A stretch of 64,000 nucleotides of DNA from an uncultured bacterium (GTDB lineage: Bacteria > Patescibacteriota > Minisyncoccia > Phycocordibacterales > Phycocordibacteraceae), in the NCBI GenBank assembly GCA_937879955.1, contig CALFMK010000002.1, forward strand, positions 1,175 to 65,174, written 5' to 3'. Position numbers and translations under genes: made by a program. The notes below the pieces were generated by a model. It made no database searches. It saw only the letters and a program-made list of their open reading frames with translations, and was not told where the DNA came from. Of the stretch, positions 13,576 through 48,531 are shown piece by piece. Within the stretch, counting starts at the first letter, position 1. Every line of letters begins with the position of its first letter.

Positions 13576-13702
13576 GCGAAGCATTCTCCTCGAAAGAGCC
13601 GGGCCCCCTCCCGGCTCTTTCTCTTTGGCACTTATACACACCAAGGGCCTATGGCGGCTCGCGGCAGGTACCTGCTATGCTGGCTTCACGCTCTTTCCAT
13701 AT

Positions 13703-14593: not shown

Positions 14594-14624
14594 CCGCGAG
14601 GGATTCCGTTTATATACGAATCGT

Positions 14625-14630
14625 GGTATA
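14625..14630 (+). promoter_or_regulatory. extended -10 element TGGTATAAT 8 nt upstream of the rnc ATG (possible leaderless transcript)
   Basis: Perfect TATAAT with an upstream TG read directly; no SD between it and the ATG at 14639. Confidence 0.35.
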
Positions 14631-14638
14631 ATCCTGCC

Positions 14639-15328
14639 ATGCTAGATTTCGCCGCGCATGCGCAGAAACTCGGCCTCGCCTACAAGGACCTCGACCTGCT
14701 CGTCGAGGCCCTTACGCATCGCTCGTACCTGAACGAGAACCGCACCACGGCGGGCAATCATAACGAGCGTCTCGAGTTCCTCGGCGACGCCGTGCTCGAG
14801 CTCATCGTCACACACTTCCTCTTCGCGCGCTTCCCAGGGAAGCCCGAGGGCGACCTCACGGCGTACCGCGCCGCGCTCGTGAACACGTACTCGCTCGCGG
14901 AGACCGCGGAGGCGCTCGGCGTGAACGACATGCTCCTCCTCTCGAAGGGCGAGAAGAAGGACACGGGCCGCGCGCGCCAGATCATCCTCGCCAACGCGTT
15001 CGAGGCGATCCTCGGCAGCATCTATCTCGACCAGGGCTACGAGGCCACGGCTGCGTTCGTGAACCGCACCCTCACGCCGAAGATCGACAGCGTGCTCAAG
15101 AACCGCACCTGGCAGGACGCGAAGAGCCAGTTCCAGGAGGTGGCGCAGGAGAAGCAGGGCGTGACGCCGACCTACAAGACCGTGAGCGAGTCGGGTCCTG
15201 ACCATGACAAGCAGTTCACGGTCGGCGTGTTCCTCGGGGACAAGGAGGTGGCGCGCGGGGACGGGAAGAGCAAGCAGGAGGCGGAACAGGCGGCGGCGCA
15301 CGCGGCGCTCGAGATACTCGGCGCGTAG
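14639..15328 (+). CDS. rnc: ribonuclease III
   Basis: RNase III signature ERLEFLGDAVLELIV plus a C-terminal dsRBD; 229 aa. Confidence 0.9.
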   Translation: MLDFAAHAQKLGLAYKDLDLLVEALTHRSYLNENRTTAGNHNERLEFLGDAVLELIVTHFLFARFPGKPEGDLTAYRAALVNTYSLAETAEALGVNDMLLLSKGEKKDTGRARQIILANAFEAILGSIYLDQGYEATAAFVNRTLTPKIDSVLKNRTWQDAKSQFQEVAQEKQGVTPTYKTVSESGPDHDKQFTVGVFLGDKEVARGDGKSKQEAEQAAAHAALEILGA

Positions 15329-15413
15329 CGTTGACTTTTCCGTACTAAGACGTATCGTGCGGGCACGTCGCGGTTTCGCGCGGCCCGTTCCTCACTCATA
15401 AGGAGATACTGCG

Positions 15414-16022
15414 ATGGACCGATCCTGGTTCCGTCGGGCGGCCGTGCCGTCCGTCATCGCCCTCGGGTTCATGGCGTTCCTGACCCTCGGCTTCTACAAG
15501 CCCGGCACCTTCGCCGGGAACGCGTACGACATCGTCCGCTACTACATCGTGACGGCCCGTCTGGCCGGCATCGCTTCGCTCGCTGCGGCGGTCTATCTGC
15601 TGCTCTCTAGGCGAGACCGGCTGCAGGCGATGTCGATGGTGTGCGGCGGCGGCATGATCATGGCCGCCCTGTTCACGCTCTCCGCGCTCCGCGTGCAGGA
15701 TCTGCGCGAGCTCTGGTGGCCGGCCTGGTCCATCATGATCGCCAGCGTCCTCGCTGCGGTCTATGCGGTGCCGGGGACGCTGCCGGTGCGCTTCGCGTCC
15801 ATCGGATGGAGCGTGCCGTTCTTCTCGATCCCGTCCGCTATCCTGGCGCTCGCGCATGTCGCGGCCGCGGGGGACTGGGAAGTCTGGCAGGTGCTCGGCA
15901 TCCTTCTCGCCGGCGCCGGCCTGACATTCCTCGTCGCGCACATAATCGACGAGCTCCGCCTACGCGCCGAGGACGATGCGTCAGACGACGGATCGCCGGG
16001 CATCCTGCACGAGAAGTCCTGA
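15414..16022 (+). CDS. hypothetical multi-pass membrane protein
   Basis: RBS aaggagatact; about 6 hydrophobic segments; 202 aa. Confidence 0.5.
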   Translation: MDRSWFRRAAVPSVIALGFMAFLTLGFYKPGTFAGNAYDIVRYYIVTARLAGIASLAAAVYLLLSRRDRLQAMSMVCGGGMIMAALFTLSALRVQDLRELWWPAWSIMIASVLAAVYAVPGTLPVRFASIGWSVPFFSIPSAILALAHVAAAGDWEVWQVLGILLAGAGLTFLVAHIIDELRLRAEDDASDDGSPGILHEKS

Positions 16023-16085
16023 CTCACATCAGGCAAGGCCGCTCCTCCGGGAGCGGCCTTTTCCATGCGCTATACTGGAGGGCAA

Positions 16086-18296
16086 ATGCTCAAGAGGCTC
16101 GAGATCGCCGGATTCAAATCCTTCGCGCGCAAGACCGTGCTCGATTTCTCGTCCTCGGTGACGAGCGTGGTGGGTCCGAACGGCTCGGGCAAGTCGAACG
16201 TGGCAGAGGCGTTCCGCTTCGCACTCGGCGAGCAGTCCATGAAGTCCATGCGCGGCAAGCGCAGCGAGGACCTCATCTGGTCCGGCTCGAACATGGCGCC
16301 GAGAGCGAACCGCGCGGCCGTAACCATCGTCTTCGACAACGCGAAACGCATCTTCCCGAAGCTCGAGTTCGATGAGGTCGCCATCGAGCGCGCGGTCTTC
16401 CGCGACGGCGCGAGCGAGTACGCCATAAACGGATCGAAGGTGCGGCTCCGCGACGTGCAGGAGCTCCTCGCCAGCGCGAACGTGGGCGAGACCGGGCACC
16501 ACATCATCTCGCAGGGCGAGGCGGACCGCATCCTCACGGCTCCTCCGAAGGAGCGTCGCAGCATGCTCGAGGACGCGCTCGGCCTCAAGGTGTTCGAGTT
16601 CAAGAAGCAGGAAGCGGAGCGAAAGCTCGAGAAGACCGAGGAGAACGTCGCGCAGGTGGAGGCGCTGCGCCGAGAGATCGCGCCGCACATCCGCTTCCTC
16701 GCGAAGCAGGTGGAGCGCCTCGATCGCGCCGAGGAGCTCAAGAAGGAGCTGCGCGCGGCGTCGAAGGCATACTTCGCGATAGAGGAGGCGTACGTGCGCA
16801 TGGAGCGCGCGACCGCGGAATCGGCGCTCGCCGAGGTCTCCGAGCGCCTCGCGCGCCTCGAGGCTGAGCTCTCCGCGTTCGAGGAGCGTGCGACTACCGA
16901 CGTCGAGGGCATGAAGCGCTCCGAGGCGGTCCGCAAGGCCGAGCGCGAGCTCGACCGCCTCACGGGCGAGCGCTCGGAGCTCGCGCGGGAGATAGGGCGC
17001 GTCGAGGGCGCGCTCAACGCCGTGAAGGCGCGCAGCATGGCCGTGGCGAAGGAGCCGTACGTGAAGGTGCCGCGCGAGGACCTGAAGACGCTGCGTGAAG
17101 AAGTCGGAAGGCAGGTCGACGCTGTGGAGAGCGCGGAGCCGGGTGCCATGCTCGCGGCACTCAAGACGCTCCGCACGCTCGTGTCCGCCTTCTTCGAGCG
17201 GTACGGCACCGGCAGCGACGATCTCATGCTCGAGGAGGAGCAGGCCGCGCACGATCTCGAAGGCAAGCGCGCAGAGCTCGCCCAGAAGGACGGCGTGCTC
17301 TTCGAGTCCGTGGAGGCCGCGAGGAACGTGCTCCTCAAGGCTCGCGAAGCAACCATGGCGCACGAGGAGACCGGCCGCGAGCAGAACCGCCGGCTCCTCG
17401 AGCTCGCGGACCAGAAGGCGAAGGCCGAAGGCGAGCGCGCGCGGCTCCAGGCGCGCATGGGCGAGCTCGACTATCTCTCCGAGGAACTCTCGCAGGGGAA
17501 GCAGGAAGCGGTCGCGCTCGTGGGCGCGGACGCCATTTCATACGAAGCATTGTCTGACCTTCCGCAGGAGGACCGTCGGGCGCAGGAGGAGCGCAAGCGC
17601 CAGATGGAGCGCCTCAAGATCCGCGTGGAGGAGGCGGGAGGCTCGGGCGAGGACGTGCGCACCGAGTACCAGGACCTCACGGCGCGCGAGGCGTTCCTCG
17701 CCAAGGAGCTCGAGGACCTCGCGACGTCCGGCGCCGCGCTCCGCGAGCTCATCAAGGACCTCGATAGCGAGCTGCAGAAGTCGTTTACGGAAGGCCTCGC
17801 GAAGGTGAACGAATCGTTCAGCGCGTTCTTCAGCGTGATGTTCGGCGGCGGCGGCGCGCGCCTCATCCTCGAGGAGTTCTCGAAGGACGACGAGGAGGAC
17901 GAGGACGCGCTCGAGGAGGCGAAGCCCCAGAAGAGCCAGAAGCCAGGTATCGAGATCTCGGTGTCGCTCCCGAAGAAGCGCGTGCAGGCCCTCATGCAGC
18001 TCTCGGGCGGCGAGCGCGCCCTCACGTCGATCGCGCTCATCTTCGCCATGAGCCAGGTGAACCCGCCGCCGTTCCTCATCCTCGACGAGACCGACGCCGC
18101 GCTCGACGAGGCGAACAGCCGCCGGTACGGCGACATGATCGAGGAGCTCTCGAAGAAGTCGCAGCTCATCGTCATAACGCACAACCGTGAGACCATGAGC
18201 CGGGCCGGCATCCTCTACGGCGTCACCATGGGCAACGACGGCATCTCGAAACTTTTGTCCGTGAAGTTCGAGGAAGCGGCGAAGGTGGCGAAATAG
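16086..18296 (+). CDS. smc: SMC-family chromosome segregation ATPase, unusually short (about 737 aa) with no recognisable hinge
   Basis: N-terminus LKRLEIAGFKSFARKTVLDFSSSVTSVVGPNGSGKSNVAEAFRFALGEQS (Walker A); C-terminal signature LSGGERALTSIALIFAM and Walker B FLILDETDAALDE; coiled-coil-like Glu/Arg/Ala-rich middle. Confidence 0.75.
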   Translation: MLKRLEIAGFKSFARKTVLDFSSSVTSVVGPNGSGKSNVAEAFRFALGEQSMKSMRGKRSEDLIWSGSNMAPRANRAAVTIVFDNAKRIFPKLEFDEVAIERAVFRDGASEYAINGSKVRLRDVQELLASANVGETGHHIISQGEADRILTAPPKERRSMLEDALGLKVFEFKKQEAERKLEKTEENVAQVEALRREIAPHIRFLAKQVERLDRAEELKKELRAASKAYFAIEEAYVRMERATAESALAEVSERLARLEAELSAFEERATTDVEGMKRSEAVRKAERELDRLTGERSELAREIGRVEGALNAVKARSMAVAKEPYVKVPREDLKTLREEVGRQVDAVESAEPGAMLAALKTLRTLVSAFFERYGTGSDDLMLEEEQAAHDLEGKRAELAQKDGVLFESVEAARNVLLKAREATMAHEETGREQNRRLLELADQKAKAEGERARLQARMGELDYLSEELSQGKQEAVALVGADAISYEALSDLPQEDRRAQEERKRQMERLKIRVEEAGGSGEDVRTEYQDLTAREAFLAKELEDLATSGAALRELIKDLDSELQKSFTEGLAKVNESFSAFFSVMFGGGGARLILEEFSKDDEEDEDALEEAKPQKSQKPGIEISVSLPKKRVQALMQLSGGERALTSIALIFAMSQVNPPPFLILDETDAALDEANSRRYGDMIEELSKKSQLIVITHNRETMSRAGILYGVTMGNDGISKLLSVKFEEAAKVAK

Positions 18297-18358
18297 CGCT
18301 TCATTGCTTCTGGACGCGCTTTGCCGTATAAGAAGGCGCAGACAGCTGGAGAGCACCC

Positions 18359-18532
18359 ATGTACAGTAAGAAGCGAGGCAAGGACTCCATGATGGTCCCG
18401 GGCTCCGATCGCTACGATCTCATGAGCGAACGGGGCGACAGCCTCACGGATTTCCGTGACCGGCAGATCCTCAATCCCCCGAAGCCCTCTCCGTTCGCGC
18501 AGAGGAATGCTGCCGATAAGGAGCAGGAATAG
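18359..18532 (+). CDS. small hypothetical protein (57 aa)
   Basis: ORF followed by the hairpin cccgcgaccactggtcgcggg; weak support. Confidence 0.25.
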   Translation: MYSKKRGKDSMMVPGSDRYDLMSERGDSLTDFRDRQILNPPKPSPFAQRNAADKEQE

Positions 18533-18638
18533 CCGCACGGAATACCCGCCCGCGACCACTGGTCGCGGGCGTTTCCTTATCCCCATGGACGCTCTGGAGG
18601 GGAGGCGTATGCTTTGGCTACCCTAACCATTCATACCT

Positions 18639-19178
18639 ATGACCGAAGACCAGCTGATCGGGAAGCGCGTGCCAGACGTGACCTTCAAGACCCGGGTGCG
18701 CGACGAAGCCGTGGGCGGGGAGAACCCGTTCCGCTGGCAGGACGTCACGAGCGACGAGCTCTTCAAGGGTAAGAAGGTGGTGCTGTTCGGCCTTCCGGGC
18801 GCGTTCACGCCGACCTGCTCCTCGACGCACGCGCCGGGCTACGAGAAGAAGTACGACGAGTTCAAGGCGCATGGCGTCGACGACGTCATCTGCCTCTCCG
18901 TGAACGACGCGTTCACGATGTACCAGTGGGGACAGAAGCTCGGCATCTCGAAGGTGCGCATGCTTCCGGACGGGAACGGCGAGTTCACCCAGAAGCTCGG
19001 CATGCTCGTGAAGAAGGAGAACCTCGGGTTCGGCAACCGCTCGTGGCGCTACTCGATCCTCGTTGAGGACGGCGTCATAACGAAGGCGTTCGTCGAGCCG
19101 GGATTCTCCGACAACTGCGAGGAGGATCCGTTCGAGGTCTCTGACGCGGACACCATGCTCGCGGCGCTCTCGGCATAA
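18639..19178 (+). CDS. peroxiredoxin (Prx5-like / AhpC-TSA family)
   Basis: [10 protein letters not shown] peroxidatic-Cys motif; 179 aa. Confidence 0.85.
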
Positions 19179-19187
19179 GCATCCCGC

Positions 19188-20423
19188 ATGGCTGCATTCG
19201 ACTACTTCAAGCGGAACGTCGGGAAGGCCGCGGACCTGCTTCAGCTCTCGGACGAGGATCGTGCGTCGTTCATGGCGCCTGACCGCGTGCTGAAGGCGGA
19301 CCTCGAGGTCCTGATGGACGACGGGCGGACCGAGACCTATCCCGCGTACCGCGTGCAGTTCGATAACGCGCGCGGCCCGTACAAGGGCGGTATCCGCTTC
19401 CATCCGGACGCGGACGAGGACGAGGTGATGGCGCTCGCCGCGATGATGGCGATCAAGTGCGCGGTCGTGGACATCCCGTTCGGCGGCGCCAAGGGCGGCG
19501 TGACCGTCGACCCGAAGCGCCTCTCTGGCGCTGAGCTCGATCGCCTCGCGCGCGCATACGTCCGCGCGTTCGCTGAGAACCTCGGCCCTGATATTGACGT
19601 GCCAGCGCCTGACGTCTACACGAATCCGACGATCATGGCTGCCATGCTCGACGAGTACGAGGCCGTAACGGGGAAGCCCGCTCCCGCCATGATCACGGGA
19701 AAGCCCCTCGAGAAGGGCGGCATCGTCGGGCGCGACACGGCCACCGCCGACGGCGCGATCTACGTCCTCGAGGCGCTCCTCGAGGATCAGCACCGAAGCC
19801 TCGAGAAGATCGAGGTGGCGGTGCAGGGCGCCGGCAACGCGGGCGCGCAGGCGGCGCACCTCGTCGATACGCACGGCGGGAAGGTGGTGGCGCTCGCGGA
19901 CTCCCGCGGCACGCTTCTGAACGCGGACGGCATCAACGTCGCCGCGGTCCTCGCGCTCAAGGAGGCGGGTAAGTCCGTGCATGACGCGAGCGAGTACGGG
20001 ACCCCCGCGGGCCCCGAGGCCGTGATCACGGCCGCTTGCGACGTGCTCATCCCGGCCGCCCTCGAGGAGGTCGTCACCGGGAAGAACGCGGGGGACGTCA
20101 TGGCGACCGTAGTGCTCGAGGTGGCCAACGGGCCGGTCACGCCCGAGGCGGACGAGCTCCTGACGAGCCGCGCCATCGGCGTGGTGCCGGACGTGCTTGC
20201 GAACGCCGGCGGCGTCACGGTCTCGTACTTCGAATGGCTGCAGAACCGCTCGGGGGAGGCCTGGGACCGTGCCCGCGTCACGGAGCGCCTGCGCGCAACG
20301 ATGCGCGACGCATACCGGGACGTGGCGGATTTCGCGCACGAGCGCGGCATCACGCTGCGCGAGGCCGCGTACGCGCTCGCCCTCACGCGCATACTCGAGG
20401 CGCGCAGCCATACGGAAGGGTAG
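19188..20423 (+). CDS. gdhA: NAD(P)-dependent glutamate dehydrogenase (Glu/Leu/Phe/Val dehydrogenase family)
   Basis: KGGIRFHPDADEDEVMALAAMMAIKCAVVDIPFGGAKGG catalytic region; GAGNAG Rossmann motif. Confidence 0.85.
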   Translation: MAAFDYFKRNVGKAADLLQLSDEDRASFMAPDRVLKADLEVLMDDGRTETYPAYRVQFDNARGPYKGGIRFHPDADEDEVMALAAMMAIKCAVVDIPFGGAKGGVTVDPKRLSGAELDRLARAYVRAFAENLGPDIDVPAPDVYTNPTIMAAMLDEYEAVTGKPAPAMITGKPLEKGGIVGRDTATADGAIYVLEALLEDQHRSLEKIEVAVQGAGNAGAQAAHLVDTHGGKVVALADSRGTLLNADGINVAAVLALKEAGKSVHDASEYGTPAGPEAVITAACDVLIPAALEEVVTGKNAGDVMATVVLEVANGPVTPEADELLTSRAIGVVPDVLANAGGVTVSYFEWLQNRSGEAWDRARVTERLRATMRDAYRDVADFAHERGITLREAAYALALTRILEARSHTEG

Positions 20424-36973: not shown

Positions 36974-38686
36974 ATGGATACCGTCGAGCAGGTGAAGGCG
37001 AAGCTCTCGATCCTCGAGGTCGTTTCGCCGTACGTGAAGCTCACGAAGTCCGGCCGCAACTACAAGGGTCTCTCGCCGTTCAACAAGGAGAAGACCCCGT
37101 CCTTCTACGTGAACGTGGAGCGCGGCACGTACTACTGCTTCTCCTCGGGACAGGGCGGCGACCAGTTCGAGTTCATCCAGAAGATGGAGGGCGTGGACTT
37201 CAAGGGCGCGCTCAAGATACTCGCGGAGAAGGCGGGGGTAGAGATCGTGTACCAGGGCGGCGGCGCCTCGAAGGCGGACAAGGACAAGCGCGACCGCCTG
37301 TACGAGGCGATGGCACGCGCGGAGGCGAAGTACGCGGCAGGCCTCCTCGAGGGGAAGGACGTCGCGGGAAGCGCGTACGCGTATGCGCTCTCGCGTGGAT
37401 TGTCCGCTGAGACCATCAAGACCTGGAACCTCGGCTACGCGCCGGACGCGTGGCGCACGATCCTCGAGAGCCTGACGGCAGACGGCTTCACGAACGCGGA
37501 GCTCGTCGCGGCTGGCTTGGTTAAGGAAGCGGACGAGAAGAAGGGGACCTGGTACGACCGCTTCCGCAAGCGCCTCATGTTCCCGATACGGGACTCGGCC
37601 GGACGCACCGTAGCGTTCACGGGACGCGCGCTCGACCCTAGCGATCTCGCGAAGTACCTGAACTCCCCGGAGACCGACCTCTACAAGAAGTCGGAGATCC
37701 TCTTCGGCATGGACAAGGCGAAGGACGCGATACGCCAGCGGGGGTTCGCGCTCTTGGTTGAGGGGCAGATGGACCTCCTCATGCTGCATCAGATCGGCTT
37801 CCAGAACACCGTAGCACTCTCGGGCACGGCGCTCACCCCGCAGCACCTTTCCTTGATAAAGCGCTACGCGGACAACCTCATGCTCGCGCTCGACTCGGAC
37901 CGCGCGGGACTGAACGCCAGCATGAAGAACGCCATCGCGGCACTCAAGGCCGGCATGCACGTGAAGGCGGTGCGGCTGCCTGCAGGGAAGGACCCGGCCG
38001 ACATGGCGAACGAGGACCCGAAGGCGTTAACCGCTCGTATCAAGGGCAGCGAGCCTATCGTAGAGTTCTTCCTCTCGGTCCTGGCCGAGACGGAGAAGGA
38101 CCCACATCGATTGATCATGCTCGTGGAGAAGACCGTGCTCCCTCTGATAGCGGCCATCCAGAGCCCGATGGAGCAGGAGCACTTCGTGGGCATAACGGCG
38201 CGCTCGCTCGGCTCGACGCCTGAGGCCATCCGGGCCGCGCTCGCCCGGCTCCCGAAAGAAGGGCGCCAGCCAGAGGCGGCTAGGCCCTTCGAGCAGCCCG
38301 TACAGACCCGTCCGCAGGCTCCTGTAGCCATGTCAGCGAGCGAGCGGCACGGGATGAAGCTTCGCGCCGTGGCGGCCGCGTATGCCGATACGGCCATTGC
38401 GAGGAAGGTGGAAAATGAGTATAATCGCATCATCGGCGTACCGTTCCCGGACGTGCCCCCTCCCGAAGACATGATCTTCGAGGCAGGAATAGCCTTTGGC
38501 GAGGCCCCCGGAGAAACGGACGCGGACGATCTCATCGTCGCATTCGAGAAGGCACTCCTAGCGGAGCGGCTCCAGGCCGCTACCGCTCGCTTGCGCGTTG
38601 CAGAGACGTCCCGAGACGAGACTCAGATTAAGGAAGCAGGGCAGGAATGCGAAGAGCTCCGGAAGAGGCTCGCCCTATTTTCATAA
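36974..38686 (+). CDS. dnaG: DNA primase
   Basis: CHC2 zinc finger ([15 protein letters not shown]), Toprim domain ([14 protein letters not shown]...LDSDRAG); 570 aa. Confidence 0.9.
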
Positions 38687-38717
38687 CGTTCGATTTACTC
38701 GTTCACCTACATCCCCG

Positions 38718-39995
38718 ATGCCAACTGCGAAGAAGCCAGCCAAGAAGGCTGCACCGAAGAAAGTAGTGAAGAAGGCCGCTCCTAAGAAGGCGGTGAAGAA
38801 GGCTGCGCCTAAGAAGGCAGCCAAGAAGGCGCCTGCGAAGAAGGCAGCGGTTGCGAAGAAGCCGACCAAGAAGGTCGCGCTCAAGAACATCGTCCGCGCG
38901 GCAGCGACAGGCGCGAAGGCGAAGGCCGCAGCCGTGAAGGTAGACAAGGCCGACGTCCTCATCAAGAAGGGCAAGGAGCGCGGCTACATCACGTACTCGG
39001 AGATCCTCAAGGAGTTCCCGCACGTGGAGGACGACATCATGTTCCTCGACGAGCTCTACGAGAAGTTCACCGCCGCCGGCATCGACATCCTCGAGGGCGG
39101 CATGCTCGCCGATGACACGGACCAGTACCTCGCTACCCGCAACATAAAGAGCCGCGACTCAGGCGCGTACGACTCCATCCAGATCTACCTCCGCGAGATC
39201 GGCCAATACCCGCTCCTCACGGCTTCCGAAGAGCGCGAGCTCGCGCAGCGTATCGAGAAGGGGGACGACGAGGCGCGCAATATCCTCGCCCGCTCGAACC
39301 TCCGCCTCGTGGTATCGATCGCAAAGAAGTACGTAGGCCGGTCTCCTGACCTGACCCTTCTCGACCTCATCCAGGAGGGCAACCTCGGCCTCTTCAAGGC
39401 CGTCGACAAGTTCGACTGGAACAAGGGATTCAAGTTCTCGACCTATGCGACGTGGTGGATCCGCCAGGCCATCACCCGCGCGCTCGCGGACCAGTCCCGC
39501 ACCATCCGCATCCCGGTGCACATGGTGGAGACCATCGCGAAGTACAAGCAGGTGTCCCGCCGCTTGGCACAGGTGCTCGGCCGCGATCCGCAGCCTGAGG
39601 AGATCGCCATCGAGATGGGCGTCGAGGTGGACAAGATCTACCAGATCGAGAAGATCAACCAGGACACGCTCTCGCTCGAGAACCCTATAGGCTCCGATGA
39701 CGACCAGAACTCCACCCTCGGTGACTTCATCGCGGACGATAAGATCCCGTCTCCTATCCAGGAGTCCTCGGAGCGCATCCTCGGCGAGCAGGTCCGCGAC
39801 ATCCTCGAGGACCTCTCTCCGAAGGAGCGCAAGATCCTCGAGATGCGCCACGGCCTCCTCGACGGCGTGTACCACACGCTCGAGGAAGTGGGTAAGGAGT
39901 TCGGCGTCACCCGCGAGCGTATCCGCCAGATCGAGGCGAAGGCGCTGGAGAAGATCAGGACGCATGAGAAGTCCCGTCGTTTGAAGAGTTACTAA
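38718..39995 (+). CDS. rpoD: RNA polymerase sigma-70 factor with a histone-H1-like Lys/Ala-rich N-terminal repeat tract
   Basis: Regions 2-4 ([41 protein letters not shown]-terminal [23 protein letters not shown]); the N-terminus is [18 protein letters not shown]... repeats. Confidence 0.9.
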
Positions 39996-39999
39996 ACGA

Positions 40000-40027
40000 A
40001 AGACCCGCGAGAGCGGGTCTTTTGTTT
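40000..40027 (+). terminator. intrinsic terminator after rpoD (aagacccgc-gaga-gcgggtcttttgttt); also the left edge of the low-GC island
   Basis: Hairpin plus T-run read directly; base composition switches from high GC to AT-rich immediately downstream. Confidence 0.6.
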
Positions 40028-41053
40028 ATGGAACAGATAAAATTTTCCTGGATTTTTAATAAAAAATCAGTCTATTGCGATTTAAGAAACGAAGTCCATA
40101 CTTGCTTCATGAAGGAAAGGGATTCGGTTCGGCCACAGAACAATCAAGAAGGCAAATTAAAAAAGCAACAGAAAAATTCTGTTGTGAATAAGCAATCGCT
40201 GTCGCTTGTTGGAAATACCATCGATAGTATTGATGTACGATTGAGCTATAAAATTGTAGAGCTTTTTTCTGAGGGTCTGTACGCAAGTCCTAATAAGGCA
40301 GTTGAAGAGCTTGTTGCTAACTCATTTGATGCTGGTGCAAGGAAAGTCTTAGTACTTCTCTCAAAAGATCTGCATGGGCAAGATGCATCAATTGCAGTTA
40401 TTGATGATGGCGAGGGTATGAATGCAGCAGGTTTGAAGCAGCACTGGCTTATAGGGGTAAGCGGGAAACGAAAGGAGCATCCGCTACCGAATGGCAGGCA
40501 GCAAATTGGAAAATTCGGAATTGGTAAACTGGCAACCTACGTTCTTTCAAACCAACTCACACATGTAAGTAAGCGTGGAGGTAAATATTTTGCGACCTCG
40601 ATGAATTATGCAGACATTGACCAGCGAGTCGGTAAGGAAATAGAACCAAAGACTCCAATGAAGATTCCACTTCACCAGCCAACAGAAGCTGAAGTTATGG
40701 AGCTCCTAAGGCCCTGGACTGAGACTGCAGCCTTCAAAACCTCTGGTATGAAACTTTTCGGAAAAGGGTCTCCCAAGTCGTGGACAGTGACTCTCATGAG
40801 CTCTCTAAAAGACAAGGTTCATGACATTAGGCCAGGTCACCTGGAGTGGGTTCTTAGAACCGCCATGCCGCTTCGACCAGATTTTGAAGTTTGGATGAAT
40901 GATAAGAAACTAGCTCCAAGTAAACAAGGAAAGGGAGTGCTTAAGGAGTGGGTGCTTGGAAAAGATCTTATAGAGCTGCCAAAGCCAGCGTCAAAGGAAA
41001 TTGAGATATCAGAGGATAAGAGCGTAGATAGTGCTGATCCTAAACGTTTCTGA
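40028..41053 (+). CDS. GHKL (Bergerat-fold, MORC/MutL/Hsp90-like) ATPase N-terminal part; ends at a TGA that is in frame with the next ORF
   Basis: N-box ELVANSFDAGARKVLVLL; Gly-rich G1/G2 region IDDGEGMNAAGLKQHWLIGVSGK...GKFGIGKLATYV; low GC; start uncertain (ATG 40028 or 40109). Confidence 0.6.
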   Translation: MEQIKFSWIFNKKSVYCDLRNEVHTCFMKERDSVRPQNNQEGKLKKQQKNSVVNKQSLSLVGNTIDSIDVRLSYKIVELFSEGLYASPNKAVEELVANSFDAGARKVLVLLSKDLHGQDASIAVIDDGEGMNAAGLKQHWLIGVSGKRKEHPLPNGRQQIGKFGIGKLATYVLSNQLTHVSKRGGKYFATSMNYADIDQRVGKEIEPKTPMKIPLHQPTEAEVMELLRPWTETAAFKTSGMKLFGKGSPKSWTVTLMSSLKDKVHDIRPGHLEWVLRTAMPLRPDFEVWMNDKKLAPSKQGKGVLKEWVLGKDLIELPKPASKEIEISEDKSVDSADPKRF

Positions 41054-41107
41054 CTGTTAACACCCCAGCTTGGGCGTATTACGGGATATGTTGAGGCTTA
41101 CAAGGAT

Positions 41108-42730
41108 TTGCTGACCGGAAAATCTGACGAAATAGGAAGGAGCTACGGCTTCTTCGTATATGTATTTGATCGTCTCGTTAATGTCGAGGATGGTCACTTT
41201 GGAATCTCACCTGATGAACTTCGGCATGGAACCTTTGGTCGCTTCAGGGCGGTGGTCCACATGAACGGTCTTGATAGGCTTTTAAGGGCAAACCGTGAAG
41301 CACTTATGGAAGGACCGGAACTTGAAGAGGCAAGAAATATCTTGCGAGGCATCTTTAACTCCGTTCGTTCTACAATTGAGAGTCAGGTAAGTCTCGAAGA
41401 ACCTGGAGCACAACTCGCCCGAAAGCTTGCTGCAAGCCCCGGAAGCTTGTCTCGATCACCAATCGTCGAGCTGGCACGTGCTGTGGTGGAGAAGCGTAGT
41501 AATGCACATTATCTTTCCGTACCTGATTTAAAGAACGATTCTGAACGAGAAGCTTTTATAAGCGAGCTTGAATCTCGCGCTGCGGATCCAGAAAAATTCG
41601 TTTCTGGACTCACTCTCGATTACAACGGTAGTCCCGATGAAGGTTTTGCAAAATATGATACCCAAACGGCAAACCTACGTATAAACGCCTGGCATCCACT
41701 TGTCGCAACTTTCCACGACGAATTCTCAAGTAAAACGAGCGGACAGCCTCTCGAGGTCTTGGCAATGGCCGAAGTACTTGCTGAGTCGCATCTGCACGCA
41801 CTCGGGGTTCCTGGAACTACAATTAGTGACTTTCTCGCAACACGCGATAGGCTGCTCCGGTATCTTGCAAATGAATCCGGACATCAAAGTGCATTTTCTG
41901 TTGCAGCCTCATTAAAAGAAGCAAGAAATAATCCTGACTCTTTAGAAGATAAGGTATGCGCTGCTTTCTCAAGTCTTGGATTTGAAACCATCCCTATTGG
42001 AGGTAAGGGTAAGCCGGACGGGGTTGCAACAGCACATCTTTCCGCGGGTGAAGACGGACAGTCTCGTCGTTACTCCGTGAGTCTTGAAGCAAAAAGTAAA
42101 GAGAAGGATGGAGTCAGGGTCGCCAATGCTAGTGTACGAGTGTCGGCAATTGCGCGCCAGCGCGATGAGTATGCCTGTAACCACGCAATTATCGTCGGTC
42201 CGTCCTTCTCAACGACAGCGGGCGAGAGCTCAGCACTCGCAAAAGAGATTAGCGCTGACCGAGAAGGTACGGAGGCAAGGGGTAATCGGAAGACCATTAC
42301 GCTTATAACAGTCGATGATTTGGCACGGCTCGTAACACTCCGTCCCCTTAAACAGCTCGGTCTTTCTGAGATCCGGAGCCTTTTTGAGTGTAGGTTACCC
42401 GAGGAAAGCAGGGAATGGGTAGATGGTATCCAGGCAAAGATTGTCGAAAAGCCACCGTACAAAGAGATCATTGGAGCTATTCACAAGCTCCAGAAAGACT
42501 TTAATCAAGCAAGTGTTAAATATTCGGCATTGCGCGTAGAGCTCTCGCATCTCTTACCGCCCATTAAATTTGATAGAGATGATGAACTTATCGAGCTCTG
42601 TAATGCGCTGGCGCAAATGTCATCAGGAGCCATGCATGCCAATACTGGAACAGTTGAGCTCGATCAGAGTAGGGAAAATGTAATTACCGCTATCGAAGCT
42701 GCGATGAGGGAGTATAATGGCCAGAGTTAA
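41108..42730 (+). CDS. continuation/partner of the GHKL ATPase (540 aa) with a C-terminal PD-(D/E)xK-like nuclease motif
   Basis: Same reading frame as 40028..41053 across the single stop; the 18 codons after the TGA are open (LLTPQLGRITGYVEAYKDLLTGK...); near the C-terminus GGKGKPDGVA ...~20 aa... YSVSLEAKSK fits D...E.K; no ATG until residue ~52. Confidence 0.5.
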   Translation: MLTGKSDEIGRSYGFFVYVFDRLVNVEDGHFGISPDELRHGTFGRFRAVVHMNGLDRLLRANREALMEGPELEEARNILRGIFNSVRSTIESQVSLEEPGAQLARKLAASPGSLSRSPIVELARAVVEKRSNAHYLSVPDLKNDSEREAFISELESRAADPEKFVSGLTLDYNGSPDEGFAKYDTQTANLRINAWHPLVATFHDEFSSKTSGQPLEVLAMAEVLAESHLHALGVPGTTISDFLATRDRLLRYLANESGHQSAFSVAASLKEARNNPDSLEDKVCAAFSSLGFETIPIGGKGKPDGVATAHLSAGEDGQSRRYSVSLEAKSKEKDGVRVANASVRVSAIARQRDEYACNHAIIVGPSFSTTAGESSALAKEISADREGTEARGNRKTITLITVDDLARLVTLRPLKQLGLSEIRSLFECRLPEESREWVDGIQAKIVEKPPYKEIIGAIHKLQKDFNQASVKYSALRVELSHLLPPIKFDRDDELIELCNALAQMSSGAMHANTGTVELDQSRENVITAIEAAMREYNGQS

Positions 42731-42732
42731 TT

Positions 42733-43992
42733 ATGCCGGCAAAAGCAAGTACAACACAGAAGAAGGGTAAGACAATGTACGATGCACTGGGACGTGACTC
42801 AGTGCACCCCTTTCCGGCCCGAATGGCCCCGACAATCGCGCTCGAAGTACTAGAGAACTCAAAGAGACCTCTCAGGATCCTCGACCCAATGATGGGTTCT
42901 GGGACAGTCATCGCTCTTGCGCGAGCGAATGGACATCAAGCAAGAGGAATTGATATAGATCCTCTGGCGGTGCTACTTTCGAAGGTATGGACGACTGCGG
43001 TTGATATTGAACACATAAATACCGTAGCTAAGAATGTTCTGGCCATAGCAGAAAAAAGTTTCCCTAATATGCCCCTGGAGAAGGCGTATCCAATAGAATC
43101 TGATGATGAGACGAAAGAGTTCATTGACTATTGGTTTGATCCCATTGTCCGTAGGCAAATGACTTCTCTTTCAAACGCGATCCTAGCCGTTGAGGATGAG
43201 GACGAGCGAGATGTACTTTGGTGTGCGCTTTCTCGCTTAATTATCGTGAAGAGCTCAGGCGTATCACTCGCGATGGATCTATCACATAGTCGTCCGCATA
43301 GAGTCTACGAAGAAGCTCCAGTAAGGCCGTTTGATAAATTTCTACCCATGGTTCTGAAGGTGACAAAGAGTTGTCTTGATAAGAAAGACAAGGCTCGCGG
43401 ACCTGTAGCGAAGGTTGCAAGGGGTGATGCTCGAAAACTCCCGATTAGAAAATCTTCGATAGATATCGTGCTTACTTCTCCTCCCTATCTTAATGCTATT
43501 GATTACATGCGTTGTAGTAAATTTTCATTGGTGTGGATGGGGTATAAAATTGGTGAACTAAGAAAGCTCCGTACCGATAGTATTGGTAGTGAATTAAGCA
43601 GTGGTATTGCTAACGAAGATGAGAGTGTGAAGCTTGTAGTAAAGGGATTAAATCTACAGCCTCGACTGACAACACGGAATCAGGCCATACTTTCTCGATA
43701 TATATATGATATGACCTCTTCAATAAAAGAGGTTGCAAGAGTATTAGTCCCAAATGGAAAGGCAATTTATGTGGTCGGTGAAAATACGATCAAGGGAACC
43801 TATATAAGGAATTCTGTTGTAATGGAAATTGTTGCAAAGCAAGTAGGGCTAGCGCTGACAGAAAAAAAAGTTCGAATTTTACCTGCCAATCGTCGTTATC
43901 TTCCGCCTCCAACAAAAAGATCAAGCAAGGCTTCGATGGATGCGCGTATGCGGAGAGAAGTTGTAATGACCTTCACGAAACTGGCGATTTAA
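42733..43992 (+). CDS. SAM-dependent amino (N6-adenine or N4-cytosine) DNA methyltransferase
   Basis: Motif I DPMMGSGTV near the N-terminus; motif IV VLTSPPYLNAIDY about 200 aa downstream; ATG 2 nt after the upstream stop. Confidence 0.8.
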   Translation: MPAKASTTQKKGKTMYDALGRDSVHPFPARMAPTIALEVLENSKRPLRILDPMMGSGTVIALARANGHQARGIDIDPLAVLLSKVWTTAVDIEHINTVAKNVLAIAEKSFPNMPLEKAYPIESDDETKEFIDYWFDPIVRRQMTSLSNAILAVEDEDERDVLWCALSRLIIVKSSGVSLAMDLSHSRPHRVYEEAPVRPFDKFLPMVLKVTKSCLDKKDKARGPVAKVARGDARKLPIRKSSIDIVLTSPPYLNAIDYMRCSKFSLVWMGYKIGELRKLRTDSIGSELSSGIANEDESVKLVVKGLNLQPRLTTRNQAILSRYIYDMTSSIKEVARVLVPNGKAIYVVGENTIKGTYIRNSVVMEIVAKQVGLALTEKKVRILPANRRYLPPPTKRSSKASMDARMRREVVMTFTKLAI

Positions 43993-44050
43993 TATTAGTG
44001 AACTTGTCAAATTCTGTGCCAGGATTATCTATCTGATAAGATATTTATGA

Positions 44051-44398
44051 ATGGCCGATATAGAAAAACTCAAGGAAATGGTGGTCCAATTCCGAGACGA
44101 TCGGGACTGGAAGCAATTTCATACTCCTAAAGACCTGGCCATTTCCATGGCTCTCGAGGCTGGGGAAGTCCTTGAGCATTTCCAGTGGAAAGACGAAAGG
44201 GCCCAATGGGCACATGGTGAGGCCAAAAGGGAGGATATTGGCGACGAGCTCGCCGACGTTCTGTATTGGGTTCTTCTCCTAAGTAACGATCTGAATATTG
44301 ATATTTCAGAGGCTTTTGTTCGCAAGCTCGAAAAGAATAACGAGAAGTATCCCGTAGAAAAGGCGAAGGGAAGAAACGCGAAGTACACAGAACTCTAG
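44051..44398 (+). CDS. MazG-like nucleoside triphosphate pyrophosphohydrolase (all-alpha NTP-PPase)
   Basis: WKQFHTPKDLAISMALEAGEVLEHFQWK...IGDELADVLYWVLLLSNDLNIDISEAF matches the MazG/HisE-type EExxE/D motifs; 115 aa. Confidence 0.75.
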   Translation: MADIEKLKEMVVQFRDDRDWKQFHTPKDLAISMALEAGEVLEHFQWKDERAQWAHGEAKREDIGDELADVLYWVLLLSNDLNIDISEAFVRKLEKNNEKYPVEKAKGRNAKYTEL

Positions 44399-44400
44399 CC

Positions 44401-45966
44401 ATGTCCGAGATCGAAAGCTTTGAATTTAAGAGAAGCGAATCGGATAAAATTCGAAAATATAAATTCGGAAGCAATTGGCCCGTTGTGTATCTTCTCGAAG
44501 ACGGGAAAGAGCTCTATGTGGGGCAGACCACTCGTGCCTTTGTGCGCAGCAAGCAGCATCTCGATACCCCGTCCCGGGCAAAGCTAAAGAAGATGCATAT
44601 AATCAGTGACGAGGAATTTAATATCTCAGCTGCTCTCGATATCGAATCCTGGCTCATTCAGTACCTTTCAGCGGAAGGTACGTTTCAGCTACAGAACTCC
44701 AATAAGGGTCTGAGGAATCATGAGTACTTTGATCGTGAGAAGTACAAGGCGAAGTTCGAGCTTATTTGGGAGAAGCTCAGGGCAATGTCGCTTGCTACCC
44801 AGGACCTCGTACAGCTCAGGAATAGTGACGTATTCAAATACTCTCCCTATAAGTCTCTTAGTGACGATCAGCTGATCATTGCCACTGATCTCTTTAAGAA
44901 GATCGCGAAGAACGAACAGAAAACGTATCTCATTAATGGAAAGCCAGGAACCGGAAAAACCGTCTTGGCAATCTATTTGATGAAGTACCTTGCGCAGGAG
45001 AAGGAGACACGGCATTTGAAGATTGCTCTTGTGGTGCCCATGACCTCGCTGCGGCAGACTATACGGAACGTCTTCAGGAAAATCCCTGGTCTCAAGACCA
45101 CTCAGGTTATCGGTCCTGCTGACGTAACGAGAGGAGACTACGATCTACTTATTGTGGACGAGGCCCATAGGCTCAAACAGCGCGTAAACATAGCCAATTA
45201 CCAGTCTTTTGATGTGGTTAACAAAAGGCTCGGTTTTGGTAACGAAGGCACCGAACTCGACTGGATACTCGCTTCTTCAAAACAGCAGATACTCTTTTAC
45301 GACAGGAACCAGAGTGTACGCCCATCCGATGTTTCCGAGCAACGATTCTCTCAACTGAAGGCTGATTTCTATAACCTAGCCAGCCAGCTGAGAGTGGAGG
45401 GAGGAGAGGAATATCTTGAATATGTAGACGGTGTTCTCAGCCTCAGAAATACCTCCTATGTACCTCAGGACTATGACTTCGCTATCTATGAGGACATTCG
45501 GGAGATGATCTCTGATATCAAGAAAAGAGACGCTGAGACTGGTCTGGCTCGTGTAGTGGCAGGATATGCCTGGGACTGGAAGACAAAGAACGGGGGAGAG
45601 GAATATGATATCGAGATCGATGGTCTAAGGCTGATCTGGAACTCAACAACGAGTGATTGGGTTAATTCCAAGAACGCTGTTAATGAAATAGGTTGTATCC
45701 ATACTATCCAGGGCTATGACCTCAATTATGCTGGCGTTATTATCGGACCTGAGATCTCATATGATCCCGAGCAGCACCGTATCGTTGTTGATCCAAAGAA
45801 GTATAAGGACATAAACGGAAAGCGATCCGTTGAGAATCCTGAAGAACTTGAGCGATATGTCATTAATATCTACAAGACCCTTCTCACGCGTGGGATTAAG
45901 GGAACCTACGTATATATCGCAGATGAAGAGCTGAGGAAGCTTTTTCGAAAGAATCTAATCGCTTAA
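44401..45966 (+). CDS. GIY-YIG nuclease domain fused to a DUF2075-type P-loop ATPase/helicase-like domain
   Basis: N-terminal VVYLLEDGKELYVGQTTRAFVRSKQH (GIY...YIG...R...H); Walker A GKPGTGKTV; Walker B DEAH-like LLIVDEAHRL; ATG 3 nt after the MazG stop. Confidence 0.75.
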   Translation: MSEIESFEFKRSESDKIRKYKFGSNWPVVYLLEDGKELYVGQTTRAFVRSKQHLDTPSRAKLKKMHIISDEEFNISAALDIESWLIQYLSAEGTFQLQNSNKGLRNHEYFDREKYKAKFELIWEKLRAMSLATQDLVQLRNSDVFKYSPYKSLSDDQLIIATDLFKKIAKNEQKTYLINGKPGTGKTVLAIYLMKYLAQEKETRHLKIALVVPMTSLRQTIRNVFRKIPGLKTTQVIGPADVTRGDYDLLIVDEAHRLKQRVNIANYQSFDVVNKRLGFGNEGTELDWILASSKQQILFYDRNQSVRPSDVSEQRFSQLKADFYNLASQLRVEGGEEYLEYVDGVLSLRNTSYVPQDYDFAIYEDIREMISDIKKRDAETGLARVVAGYAWDWKTKNGGEEYDIEIDGLRLIWNSTTSDWVNSKNAVNEIGCIHTIQGYDLNYAGVIIGPEISYDPEQHRIVVDPKKYKDINGKRSVENPEELERYVINIYKTLLTRGIKGTYVYIADEELRKLFRKNLIA

Positions 45967-46040
45967 TTGGGAGCTTTCAGACTTTATCAAAAATTTATCT
46001 AGATTTGATATCCTCCTGTCTTAGGCTAATACAATCAACC

Positions 46041-46673
46041 ATGAATAAGACGGTACTTATAGCGATTGCAGCCTTCCTCATTCTTGTCGGTGGCATGTAT
46101 TACTTCACCCGCTCGTCGGAGGAATCAGCTACCGTGGTAGATACTTCAGGTTGGAATACCTATACAAATACTACCTATTCATATTCGCTTTCATACCCTG
46201 ATGGCCTCAGACTGGGATACCCGGGTATGGCTGAAACGGTGCGGATCGAGGAGACTGACGATCTTATGATTGATGCTGATCTTAAGCCAGCCATCTTTGG
46301 TGTGACAGCATATACCGTTGATACAGCACATGACTCTCCGGCCATTAAGGAGCGAAACAGTTTGGCCACTCTACCACTTAAAGAGTTTGCTGAAGGTGTC
46401 CGACAGCTGCAGGTAAATGACTCAAATTCTTCAATCCAAGATAAAACGGTTGGAGAGTTACAGGAAATTACGTTTGCAGGAAAGCCGGCCTATTCCTTCA
46501 CTCTAAACAAAGCGTTTGTCTCAGATTCACTTGGTAGTGGCTATATTCTCACACCAGAAGATACGAACTTTAATTTCATCTTCGTTGAGAATAAGTTCGG
46601 CCAGAAACTTATGGTTCGGTATCTTGTGAACGATACCGCTGCAGAAGGTATAAAGAATTCATTCAAGCTCTAG
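46041..46673 (+). CDS. hypothetical secreted/anchored protein (low GC)
   Basis: N-terminal TM/signal MNKTVLIAIAAFLILVGGMYYF; no recognised domain; followed by a bidirectional hairpin at ~46690..46725. Confidence 0.5.
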   Translation: MNKTVLIAIAAFLILVGGMYYFTRSSEESATVVDTSGWNTYTNTTYSYSLSYPDGLRLGYPGMAETVRIEETDDLMIDADLKPAIFGVTAYTVDTAHDSPAIKERNSLATLPLKEFAEGVRQLQVNDSNSSIQDKTVGELQEITFAGKPAYSFTLNKAFVSDSLGSGYILTPEDTNFNFIFVENKFGQKLMVRYLVNDTAAEGIKNSFKL

Positions 46674-46751
46674 CGCTGCATTATAATTAATAAAAAGCCC
46701 CCGGCTCTCGAAAGAGAGTCGGGGGTAGTTCGTTAAGAGCTTAGCTCTTGG

Positions 46752-47450
46752 TTATTGGCAGGTGGCTGCGGGGTAATGCATGTTACTGCCGGAATGAAGC
46801 GGGTCTGGAATCAAAGCATACTGGTACCAGTACTCCGTTGCCTGACTCTCAGATCCAGCAAACGGATCACGGCTTGTACCGCTGGCCGACATCGAGCTAC
46901 GTAGCTCGAAGTGTAGGTGAGGTCCGGTGACACTCCCGCTCCTGCCCGAGAGACCGACCAGTGTTCCGCCAGGGCCGCTCACGCAGGTGATCGATTGTCC
47001 GTTGGTGACGTTGACCGAGCTCAGGTGCGCATAGAGCGTGTACCAGCCATCAGCATGCTGAATCCAGACGTGGTTGCCCAGGTTGCTGCCGCAGGACGGA
47101 TTGCCGGTCGCTGGACAGCCTGTCGTTACGGAAGCAACCGTTCCGCTCGCTGCCGCATAGACCGACGTACCAGATGATACGCCAAAGTCCGTTCCTCGAT
47201 GCCTCGGGTTGTTGCCGTAATAGTACGGCGAGGTGGACGGTATGACCGTGGCATCGTAACGAATGTTGGTGTTGGTCGCGTAGGGTGTATGCCAGTGGTC
47301 CATCCATGCCGTAATGCTATACGGCACGTAGGCAAGCGGGAGCCTGTACTTTGTTTGCGCTTGAGCTGCGCTCCCGTTCAAGAACGTGAGAAAAAGCGCG
47401 ACCGCCGCACATAGAGTGGCCAGCAGTCCCTGATTCCTGTAGCTTCTCAT
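46752..47450 (-). CDS. secreted M23 (LytM-type) metallopeptidase
   Basis: Signal peptide; HRGTDFG...GNHVWIQHADGWYTLYAHLS...GLSGRSGSVTGPHLHFEL contains the HxxxD and HxH zinc-ligand motifs. Confidence 0.8.
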   Translation of the reverse strand: MRSYRNQGLLATLCAAVALFLTFLNGSAAQAQTKYRLPLAYVPYSITAWMDHWHTPYATNTNIRYDATVIPSTSPYYYGNNPRHRGTDFGVSSGTSVYAAASGTVASVTTGCPATGNPSCGSNLGNHVWIQHADGWYTLYAHLSSVNVTNGQSITCVSGPGGTLVGLSGRSGSVTGPHLHFELRSSMSASGTSRDPFAGSESQATEYWYQYALIPDPLHSGSNMHYPAATCQ

Positions 47451-47591
47451 CTATACTCTCCAAATATGTAGGTTTGAGGTTGTGTAGATACATAGACTGC
47501 ACTACGGACCCATGCAAGCCCCCTTTGAAAGAACAAAGTTCGCACTATTTGCGAATACCTGACTCGAAATAGTCAGGTGCAGCATCCTACC

Positions 47592-48053
47592 TTACGAAGA
47601 TAAAGAGAAAATAAAGTCGAAATGCTCTGAAGAAACCGGTGTCACTGAAAGCCTCGAACCCGGTTGCAGAATCATCATCTTCCCAAGATGAGAATCTGCC
47701 CTGATGTCAGTCAGCGTAACCGGCACCTCGAGCTTCCGAACGAACGCGATATCAACCAAGTCCCAGATAGGCTTCGCTTCAGTGGCGCGCGGATCATAAT
47801 AGCTGCTCTTCGGGTCGAACTGGGTCGGGTCAGGATAGGGCAGGGAGACAACCTCGGCGATGCCGTAGACGCCTGGCACCTTACAGTTCGAATGATAGAA
47901 GAGCACATGGTCTCCGGGCTTCATCTCGCGCATATAGTTCCGGGCCTGAAAGTTCCGGACTCCGGTCCAAGCAGTCTTCCCGTCCTTCTTGAGATGGTCG
48001 ATTCCGTAGCTCTCGGGCTCGGATTTCATGAGCCAATATCGCTTTTCAGACAT
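47592..48053 (-). CDS. EVE (PUA-like) domain protein
   Basis: YWLMKSEPESYGIDHL...WTGVRNFQARNYMREMKPGDHVLFYHSN is the EVE/Thump-like PUA signature; start at MSEKRYW, the ORF-track N-terminal extension is unlikely. Confidence 0.75.
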   Translation of the reverse strand: MSEKRYWLMKSEPESYGIDHLKKDGKTAWTGVRNFQARNYMREMKPGDHVLFYHSNCKVPGVYGIAEVVSLPYPDPTQFDPKSSYYDPRATEAKPIWDLVDIAFVRKLEVPVTLTDIRADSHLGKMMILQPGSRLSVTPVSSEHFDFIFSLSS

Positions 48054-48111
48054 TGTTTCCAGTATATATAAAATCCAGTTTTTCTTTATATTCCTGAGAT
48101 ACATTGCAGCA

Positions 48112-48531
48112 ATGAATACTGCAAAAAAGGAAAGGGACTTCAGAAAGCGTGTCACAAGACGTCTGAAAAGGAGTGACCCTGTTCGGTGGGAAGGTCTTTC
48201 TGAGGAAGAACGGTTGAGTGCCGTAGAGGTCTATGCAGATCTTGTGGACCCAAAGAATTTGGATCCCTTGTCCCTTATCAATGAGACATGGAATCGTGCC
48301 GATGCAGTAGACAATCTAATGATGGGTGTGCTGCTCGGGCTTTTCGGAACTGCTGCAGGCAATGTCATTGAAAATTACCTTGCTCCCGCCGGGATAGTGT
48401 ATGAATTCTTCGCGGTAACATTCTTCCTTGGTATTTTCTTTATCTTCAACTGGATACCGGGAGAGATTCTCAATCGAAGCTATAAGGAAGGTCGCTTGCT
48501 CGAGAAGCTCTTAAGGGAGAAGAAATCGTAA
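48112..48531 (+). CDS. hypothetical membrane protein (low GC)
   Basis: Two C-terminal hydrophobic segments; divergent from the EVE gene across an AT-rich 58-bp gap. Confidence 0.4.
   Translation: MNTAKKERDFRKRVTRRLKRSDPVRWEGLSEEERLSAVEVYADLVDPKNLDPLSLINETWNRADAVDNLMMGVLLGLFGTAAGNVIENYLAPAGIVYEFFAVTFFLGIFFIFNWIPGEILNRSYKEGRLLEKLLREKKS

Follow-up and report, generated by a model that had tools for sequence, protein, structure and literature searches.

The window analyzed here, a stretch of 64,000 nucleotides from contig CALFMK010000002.1 of an uncultured member of the Patescibacteriota, carries a putative restriction gene (called the restriction gene below) that encodes a PD-(D/E)xK motif in its 3' part and that is followed directly by a gene for a DNA methyltransferase. 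The reading that we consider probable is that the motif (E613, D637, E660-x-K662) is the catalytic site of a FokI/Mrr-like PD-(D/E)xK domain in a single-chain GHKL restriction endonuclease of about 850 amino acids, that this enzyme is paired with a protective methyltransferase in a two-gene operon that moves horizontally as a cassette, and that in the copy studied here the restriction gene is interrupted by a stop codon. From the N to the C terminus, the domains are a GHKL ATPase, a MORC/Hsp90-like transducer, a helical region, the nuclease, and a winged-helix-like tail. Residue numbers refer to an 873-amino-acid reconstruction that starts from the ATG at 40109.

Predicted nuclease domain

The initial annotation had proposed, from two peptides encoded at 41960-42130, that the C-terminal part of the protein contains the core motif of restriction-endonuclease-fold nucleases. 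Both peptides are present in the translation, which in the motif region reads ...SLEDKVCAAFSSLGFETIPIGGKGKPDGVATAHLSAGEDGQSRRYSVSLEAKSKEK.... The predicted catalytic residues are E613 (codon 41945-41947), D637, which is the Asp of the PD pair (42017-42019), E660 (42086-42088), and K662 (42092-42094), and there are 23 residues from the Asp to the Glu. Taken alone, the motif is weak as evidence, as the bare pattern PD.{10,30}[DE].K turned up in 13% of 2000 shuffles of the 540-amino-acid open reading frame (ORF) and also in 9 of the 170 six-frame ORFs of at least 150 amino acids in the window. Its significance comes from the conservation of the residues, the fold, and the profile matches.

A search with the last 304 residues against 1.84 billion cluster representatives returned 409 relatives, and the family comprises 409 clusters at 50% identity, distributed over many bacterial and archaeal phyla. 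When the relative is a full-length protein, the match always lies at the same C-terminal position. No phage or plasmid homologs were found by tblastn. Conservation was assessed with 45 full-length cluster representatives (26 to 48% identity), with counts taken over 46 sequences. E613, which lies on the preceding helix, and K662 are present in all 46 sequences, whereas the two other positions show interchange of acidic residues: position 637 is D in 42 sequences and E in 4, and position 660 is E in 25 and D in 21. Such swaps are the pattern that would be expected of an acidic metal ligand. With this D/E interchange, the catalytic residues are kept over the range of 26 to 68% identity, so the conservation of the proposed motif holds down to the most distant homologs examined, at 26% identity.

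The C-terminal region was modeled by AlphaFold2 with a 58-sequence alignment. The model, with a predicted local distance difference test (pLDDT) score of 94 and a predicted template modeling (pTM) score of 0.88, has an alpha-beta-beta-beta-alpha-beta core (helix H40-53; strands E57-60, E69-73, and E86-92; helix H104-118; strand E123-128, in the numbering of the C-terminal model). E613 is placed on the first helix, D637 at the start of beta2, and the ExK residues on beta3, and the restriction-endonuclease fold with positioned D/E/K residues that the initial annotation had put forward is therefore borne out by the model. A Foldseek search of the PDB with this model gave FokI as the first match (E value of 1.5e-4, about 190 aligned columns), followed by HindIII, AspBHI, the small subunit of R.BspD6I, AF1548, MspJI, and Hjc. 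When viral models were searched, the best named matches were annotated as restriction endonucleases or PD-(D/E)xK nucleases.

Profile comparisons agree with the model. Alignment of the family profile with the FokI cleavage domain by hhalign (E value of 6.5e-5) placed D637, E660, and K662 on FokI D450, D467, and K469, respectively. A profile search of PDB sequences gave the same FokI alignment (2fok residues 416-469), with HindIII ranked first. When 35 family members were scanned individually against Pfam (E value of at most 1), 20 of them matched Mrr_cat (PF04471; best E value of 3.3e-7), 10 matched FokI_cleav_dom (PF09254; best, 1.7e-5), and 2 matched RE_HindIII; the window copy itself matched none of the three. 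The relationship to the FokI, HindIII, and Mrr catalytic domains thus comes from the family profile, and the reading of the initial annotation survives the profile searches that it had named as a possible refutation. Together, these results support a restriction-endonuclease fold of the FokI/Mrr-like type for the C-terminal domain, for which cleavage activity is predicted.

The frequency of Mrr_cat among the Pfam matches of the members, and the presence of AspBHI and MspJI among the structural matches, would also fit a modification-dependent nuclease (Type IV, Mrr/MspJI-like) whose targets are methylated foreign sequences and not unmethylated DNA. We consider this explanation very improbable. 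Within the fold that they share, the catalytic domains of Mrr, FokI, and HindIII are closely related, and neither an SRA-like domain nor any other reader of modified bases was detected. Moreover, the co-oriented, tightly and almost universally linked methyltransferase described below is the signature of a classical restriction-modification (R-M) pair. That the motif is a chance match in a C-terminal region without nuclease function is scarcely credible. The frequency of the bare pattern in shuffled sequences and the lack of a direct database match for the window sequence could be cited for it, but residue conservation, fold, and profile matches refute it as far as computation goes.

The nuclease domain is followed by a tail of about 120 residues, in which the model has helices and a beta-hairpin (H236-244, H255-268, E273-275, E279-282, and H286-303 of the C-terminal model). 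The tail has no Pfam match, and Foldseek gave weak matches to ORC/Cdc6 winged-helix, histone H1, and forkhead domains. Judging from the model, this tail may bind DNA.

In-frame stop codon in the restriction gene

The initial annotation linked the nuclease to a GHKL ATPase encoded upstream, and described the two as separate partners. The link itself stands, as the GHKL domain and the nuclease lie on one polypeptide in every homolog, but the separate "ATPase partner" is an artifact of an in-frame stop codon. The ORFs at 40022-41053 and 41108-42730 are in the same frame and form one gene, with only the TGA at 41051-41053 between them; the joined translation (window 39983-42733, + strand) contains ...AAFSSLGFETIPIGGKGKPDGVATAHLSAGEDGQSRRYSVSLEAKSKEKDGV.... 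A database search with the joined sequence found single proteins of about 850 amino acids that match with 61 to 68% identity and 96 to 100% coverage, and these homologs are uninterrupted. In related loci (n = 84), the tblastn matches of the two fragments abut, one codon apart. An intact copy, in one ORF of 851 amino acids, is present in the cultured strain Nitrospira moscoviensis NSP M-1 (NZ_CP011801.1, within 1602516-1615418), where the methyltransferase has 411 amino acids. Database entries of 380 to 750 amino acids also exist, but within the same alignment all of them begin internally, which indicates that they are N-terminally truncated fragments rather than variants without the ATPase. 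The start codon of the window copy is uncertain and could be either the ATG at 40109 or a GTG near 40184 that matches the N termini of the homologs.

The TGA is aligned with the Gly of an RFG(L/I) motif, and this Gly is present in 15 of 15 close homologs. A single base change, from GGA (Gly) to TGA, is enough to give the stop codon. Apart from it, the window copy deviates from the consensus in none of 66 highly conserved columns (at least 93% conserved), and all catalytic and ATP-binding residues are intact. Because no conserved column is changed, the interruption must be either recent or the result of a sequencing error. As written, the restriction gene is probably nonfunctional; most likely it was inactivated recently, and the adjacent methyltransferase is still functional but effectively an orphan.

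The alternative is that the system is intact in the organism, with the TGA being a base-calling error, an assembly error, or a minority variant, or with the two fragments acting as separate subunits. The unchanged columns, the intact catalytic and ATP-binding residues, and the near-invariant Gly that lies only one base change away all fit with this alternative, as does a TTG at 41108 that is preceded by a weak GAGG. We nevertheless regard it as rather unlikely. The stop is present in the sequence as given, and since it splits the gene inside the transducer domain, independent folding of the two fragments is not expected. A conserved two-gene arrangement of the restriction protein was not found among the 84 loci, and the shorter database entries are N-terminal truncations. 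Moreover, R-M systems usually decay by losing the restriction gene while the methyltransferase is kept. An inactivated restriction gene therefore remains the preferred explanation.

As the stop replaces a near-invariant Gly, we also considered recoding of TGA as Gly (genetic code 25), but this was rejected. The rpoB and rpoC genes (1064 and 1245 amino acids) and other long ORFs of the host are open under the standard code, some ORFs with a high GC content at third codon positions (GC3) end in TGA, and the host is Paceibacterota-like; DnaG places it with the Patescibacteria/Paceibacterota. The GC content of the host is 64%, and TGA is rare as a stop codon (about 3 of 17 high-GC3 ORFs), which is unusual for a GC-rich genome.

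ATPase and transducer domains

The ORF at 40022-41053 matches Pfam HATPase_c_3 (PF13589) with 76.8 bits, against a cut-off of 25, and the restriction protein contains the Bergerat motifs ExxxN, DxGxG, and GxxGxG. In 58 sequences, down to 30% identity, the ATP-binding residues E66, E67, N71, D74, D99, G101, G134, G137, and G139 are invariant, so ATP binding is evidently under selection. The full-length AlphaFold2 model of the restriction protein (pLDDT score of 86) aligns over about 430 to 450 columns with the ATPase modules of MORC3 (6o1e), MORC2 (9cdj), MORC4, and TRAP1/Hsp90. Based on these matches, the N-terminal half of the protein consists of a GHKL domain and a transducer domain.

Methyltransferase partner and related loci

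The initial annotation also named the adjacent methyltransferase as the protective partner, and the conservation of the neighborhood agrees with this. The protein has an FxGxG motif around residue 55 and an SPPY motif around residue 240, the latter a hint that the modification may be m4C. It matches Pfam N6_N4_Mtase (PF01555) with 34.5 bits (cut-off, 26.7) and the PADLOC MTase_II model with an E value of 2.8e-33. Of the 84 related loci, 83 contain a homolog of the methyltransferase, which in nearly all cases directly adjoins the restriction gene; in the one remaining locus, the contig breaks off within the restriction gene. Mostly the two genes share a strand, with the methyltransferase gene 30 to 110 bp downstream, whereas in some loci it directly precedes the restriction gene. 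The loci span Acidobacteria, Planctomycetes, Proteobacteria, Nitrospira, Chloroflexi, Actinobacteria, Bacteroidetes, Firmicutes, and Archaea, and their neighbors other than the methyltransferase differ from one locus to the next. We infer that the methyltransferase protects the host DNA. The neighborhood of nuclease and methyltransferase thus corresponds to the classical (Type II-like) R-M pairing, although the intact restriction gene that belongs to a Type II-like system is lacking in the window because of the TGA.

The same synteny bears on the question of whether the restriction protein could be a Shedu-like (paraMORC3/VcSduA-type) stand-alone defense nuclease whose sensing of phage DNA does not depend on methylation, with the methyltransferase as unrelated cargo. 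Such proteins have the same domain order, from a GHKL ATPase at the N terminus to a PD-(D/E)xK nuclease at the C terminus; paraMORC3 carries a C-terminal E-D-ExK domain (PMC2292703), and VcSduA requires both activities for phage defense (PMC12137116). However, neither the window protein nor the 35 members scanned gave a match to DUF4263 (PF14082) or to the PADLOC Shedu models, and the structures that match best are those of FokI and HindIII rather than of Shedu-type nucleases. Whereas paraMORC3/Shedu genes stand alone, the family described here has a methyltransferase homolog in all but one of its loci. We give this possibility very little weight, as it is largely refuted by synteny, and we retain the pairing of the restriction enzyme with a protective methyltransferase.

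Downstream of the methyltransferase gene are two further genes on the + strand. The first (44051-44398) encodes a MazG-like nucleotide pyrophosphohydrolase (PF12643; E value of 1.1e-17), and after a gap of 2 nucleotides it is followed by a gene for a 521-amino-acid protein of the Schlafen group 3/DUF2075 helicase type (44401-45966; PF09848; E value of 1.2e-67); the two may form a gene pair. The N-terminal 130 residues or so of the helicase protein contain a GIY-YIG-like motif that is below the Pfam threshold (E value of 0.047), and PADLOC gave weak matches of the protein to Nhi, AbiO, and PDC-S14. Probably, this is a nuclease-helicase defense gene in its own right. The MazG-like and SLFN-type helicase genes were considered as parts of the system and rejected, since none of the 84 loci has them as neighbors.

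Genomic island

The features of the system and of the island in which it lies are listed in Table 1.

Table 1. Coordinates of the restriction gene, its predicted domains, the methyltransferase gene, and the surrounding island in the window
Feature	Position	Strand	Description or evidence
Restriction gene, 5' part	40109..41050	+	GHKL (Bergerat-fold) ATPase and first half of the transducer domain
In-frame TGA	41051..41053	+	Residue 315 of the 873-amino-acid reconstruction; inside the transducer domain
Restriction gene, 3' part	41054..42730	+	Rest of the transducer, helical middle, predicted nuclease, and C-terminal tail; ends with TAA
PD-(D/E)xK (FokI/Mrr-like) nuclease domain, predicted	41888..42355	+	Conservation, model, Foldseek, hhalign, PDB profile, Pfam matches of members
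C-terminal tail	42362..42727	+	Helices and beta-hairpin, winged-helix-like; model elements, weak Foldseek matches
DNA amino-methyltransferase, intact	42733..43992	+	PF01555, PADLOC; starts 2 nucleotides past the TAA of the restriction gene
Low-GC variable island	40023..47619	.	About 45% GC versus 64% in the flanks; between the rpoD terminator and the EVE-domain gene

Compared with a closely related Patescibacteria contig (L085), synteny is lost at 40022 and restored at 47620. In L085, the site (13184-19903 of that contig) is likewise flanked by rpoB-rpoC-dnaG-rpoD and, at its other end, by the EVE-domain gene, but it holds a helix-turn-helix gene and a complete Type I R-M system (HsdM/S/R) instead. 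The presence of a Type I R-M system at this site indicates that it is a defense hotspot with exchangeable cargo. The window has no tRNA genes, no integrase was found among the island ORFs scanned, and the flanks of the island have only short repeats, which are likely due to chance.

On the left side of the island, RpoD (38598-39995, + strand) has a long Lys/Ala/Pro-rich N-terminal extension with repeats before region 1.1. The right border is formed by the gene for the EVE-domain protein (47592-48155, - strand; PF01878; E value of 1.9e-57), which is split into two ORFs in L085; just past it, L085 has a HEPN gene. EVE domains are PUA-like readers that have been linked to modified bases. Inside the island there are also genes for a secreted PsbP-like protein (46005-46673, + strand; weak Pfam match) and an M23 peptidase (46752-47450, - strand). 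Both have an intermediate GC content and no obvious connection with defense.

Proposed mechanism and significance

GHKL enzymes such as MutL, GyrB, Hsp90, and MORC undergo ATP-dependent N-terminal dimerization that closes a clamp, and FokI has one active site per domain, so that it must dimerize for double-strand cleavage. From these precedents, an ATP-closed dimeric clamp that pairs the nuclease domains is probable. By analogy, binding of ATP would dimerize the N-terminal GHKL domains into a clamp on DNA, closure of the clamp would bring together two nuclease domains with one active site each, and the paired FokI-like domains would cut both strands. The methyltransferase would mark and protect the host sites. 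In the window copy, where the restriction gene has a nonsense codon, the methyltransferase is most likely the only active component. It is possible, and we suggest it tentatively, that the family represents an uncharacterized mechanistic class in which a MORC/MutL-like ATP clamp forces two FokI-like single-site domains to pair, where the gate would be ATP-driven dimerization and not translocation, as in Type I and Type III enzymes, or simple binding, as in Type IIP enzymes.

A number of points weigh against the proposed restriction endonuclease and its mechanism. The C-terminal 558 amino acids of the window copy gave no meaningful match in Pfam, PADLOC, NCBIfam, or PDB sequences; as these direct searches were blank, family profiles and a structure model were needed to reveal the fold. 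The Foldseek TM-scores are modest (0.36 to 0.42 on the query), which can be attributed to the non-nuclease tail included in the query model. No DNA-recognition element was identified in the restriction protein, and we found no biochemical data on any member of the family. The ATP dependence of cleavage is predicted by analogy, and HgiDII, which also contains a GHKL domain, was found as an ordinary Type II activity. Finally, the sequence alone is compatible with a pseudogene as well as with a sequencing error.

In public records, the family is labeled "ATP-binding protein" or "histidine kinase-like ATPase." As the nuclease half is invisible to Pfam, NCBIfam, and PADLOC, surveys of R-M and defense systems miss the restriction component and score the methyltransferase as an orphan. 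The kind of system is ordinary, and current annotation largely misses it. The window itself holds an ordinary horizontally acquired R-M cassette in a defense hotspot of Patescibacteria, with its restriction gene knocked out. The interest of the family lies in what is predicted to be a natural fusion of a MORC-like ATP clamp with a FokI-like cleavage domain. With the intact copy of N. moscoviensis NSP M-1, the old proposal that prokaryotic GHKL/MORC relatives gate the nucleases of R-M systems becomes directly testable.

Comparison with known systems

Orlowski and Bujnicki (2008) described five REBASE subfamilies with N-terminal GHKL domains (PMC2441816). One of them is that of R.VeiORF1182P, for which a GHKL domain at the N terminus and a PD-(D/E)XK domain at the C terminus of a putative Type II restriction enzyme have been described (PMC2441816). 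By this description, its architecture is the same as that of the family studied here. The best NCBIfam match of the window protein is the BbrUII/HgiDII family (NF050001), which is likewise a Type II enzyme with an N-terminal GHKL domain. However, the match reached only 68.7 bits against a cut-off of 550 and was confined to the GHKL domain (positions 11-149 of the 659 in the profile), and membership in this family was therefore rejected. The C-terminal domain of HgiDII has been described as an unknown fold (PMC2441816).

In the same year, Iyer, Abhiman, and Aravind (2008) reported paraMORC families in R-M operons (PMC2292703), of which paraMORC3 was later equated with GHKL-Shedu (VcSduA; PMC12137116). 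The type I-D Shedu protein VcSduA resembles the window protein in its GHKL ATPase, in the clamp-like domain in its middle, and in the PD-(D/E)xK nuclease with an E-D-ExK signature at its C terminus, and its ATPase is thought to control the nuclease. It differs in that its nuclease belongs to DUF4263 and its gene stands alone, whereas the family described here lacks DUF4263 and is paired with a methyltransferase. The N-terminal 430 residues or so superpose on the modules of MORC2, MORC3, MORC4, and TRAP1 (E values of about 1e-12 to 1e-13, TM-score of about 0.55 on the target), but there is no CW or coiled-coil domain as in MORC proteins and no C-terminal endonuclease as in MutL; the effector is a predicted restriction-type nuclease.

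With FokI (1FOK/2FOK; PF09254), the family shares the PD-(D/E)xK fold with one active site per domain and a strikingly similar local sequence of the form LE-KV--F---G-----GG--KPDG ... Y-V--(D/E)-K. In FokI, winged-helix recognition domains lie at the N terminus and an ATPase is absent, whereas in the window family the nuclease domain follows a GHKL ATPase and is itself followed by a helical tail of its own. Both the architecture and the underlying idea were already predicted in 2008 (PMC2441816, PMC2292703). To these predictions our analysis makes modest additions, namely, the FokI-like assignment of the nuclease domain, its near-universal linkage with a methyltransferase, and the breadth of the family.

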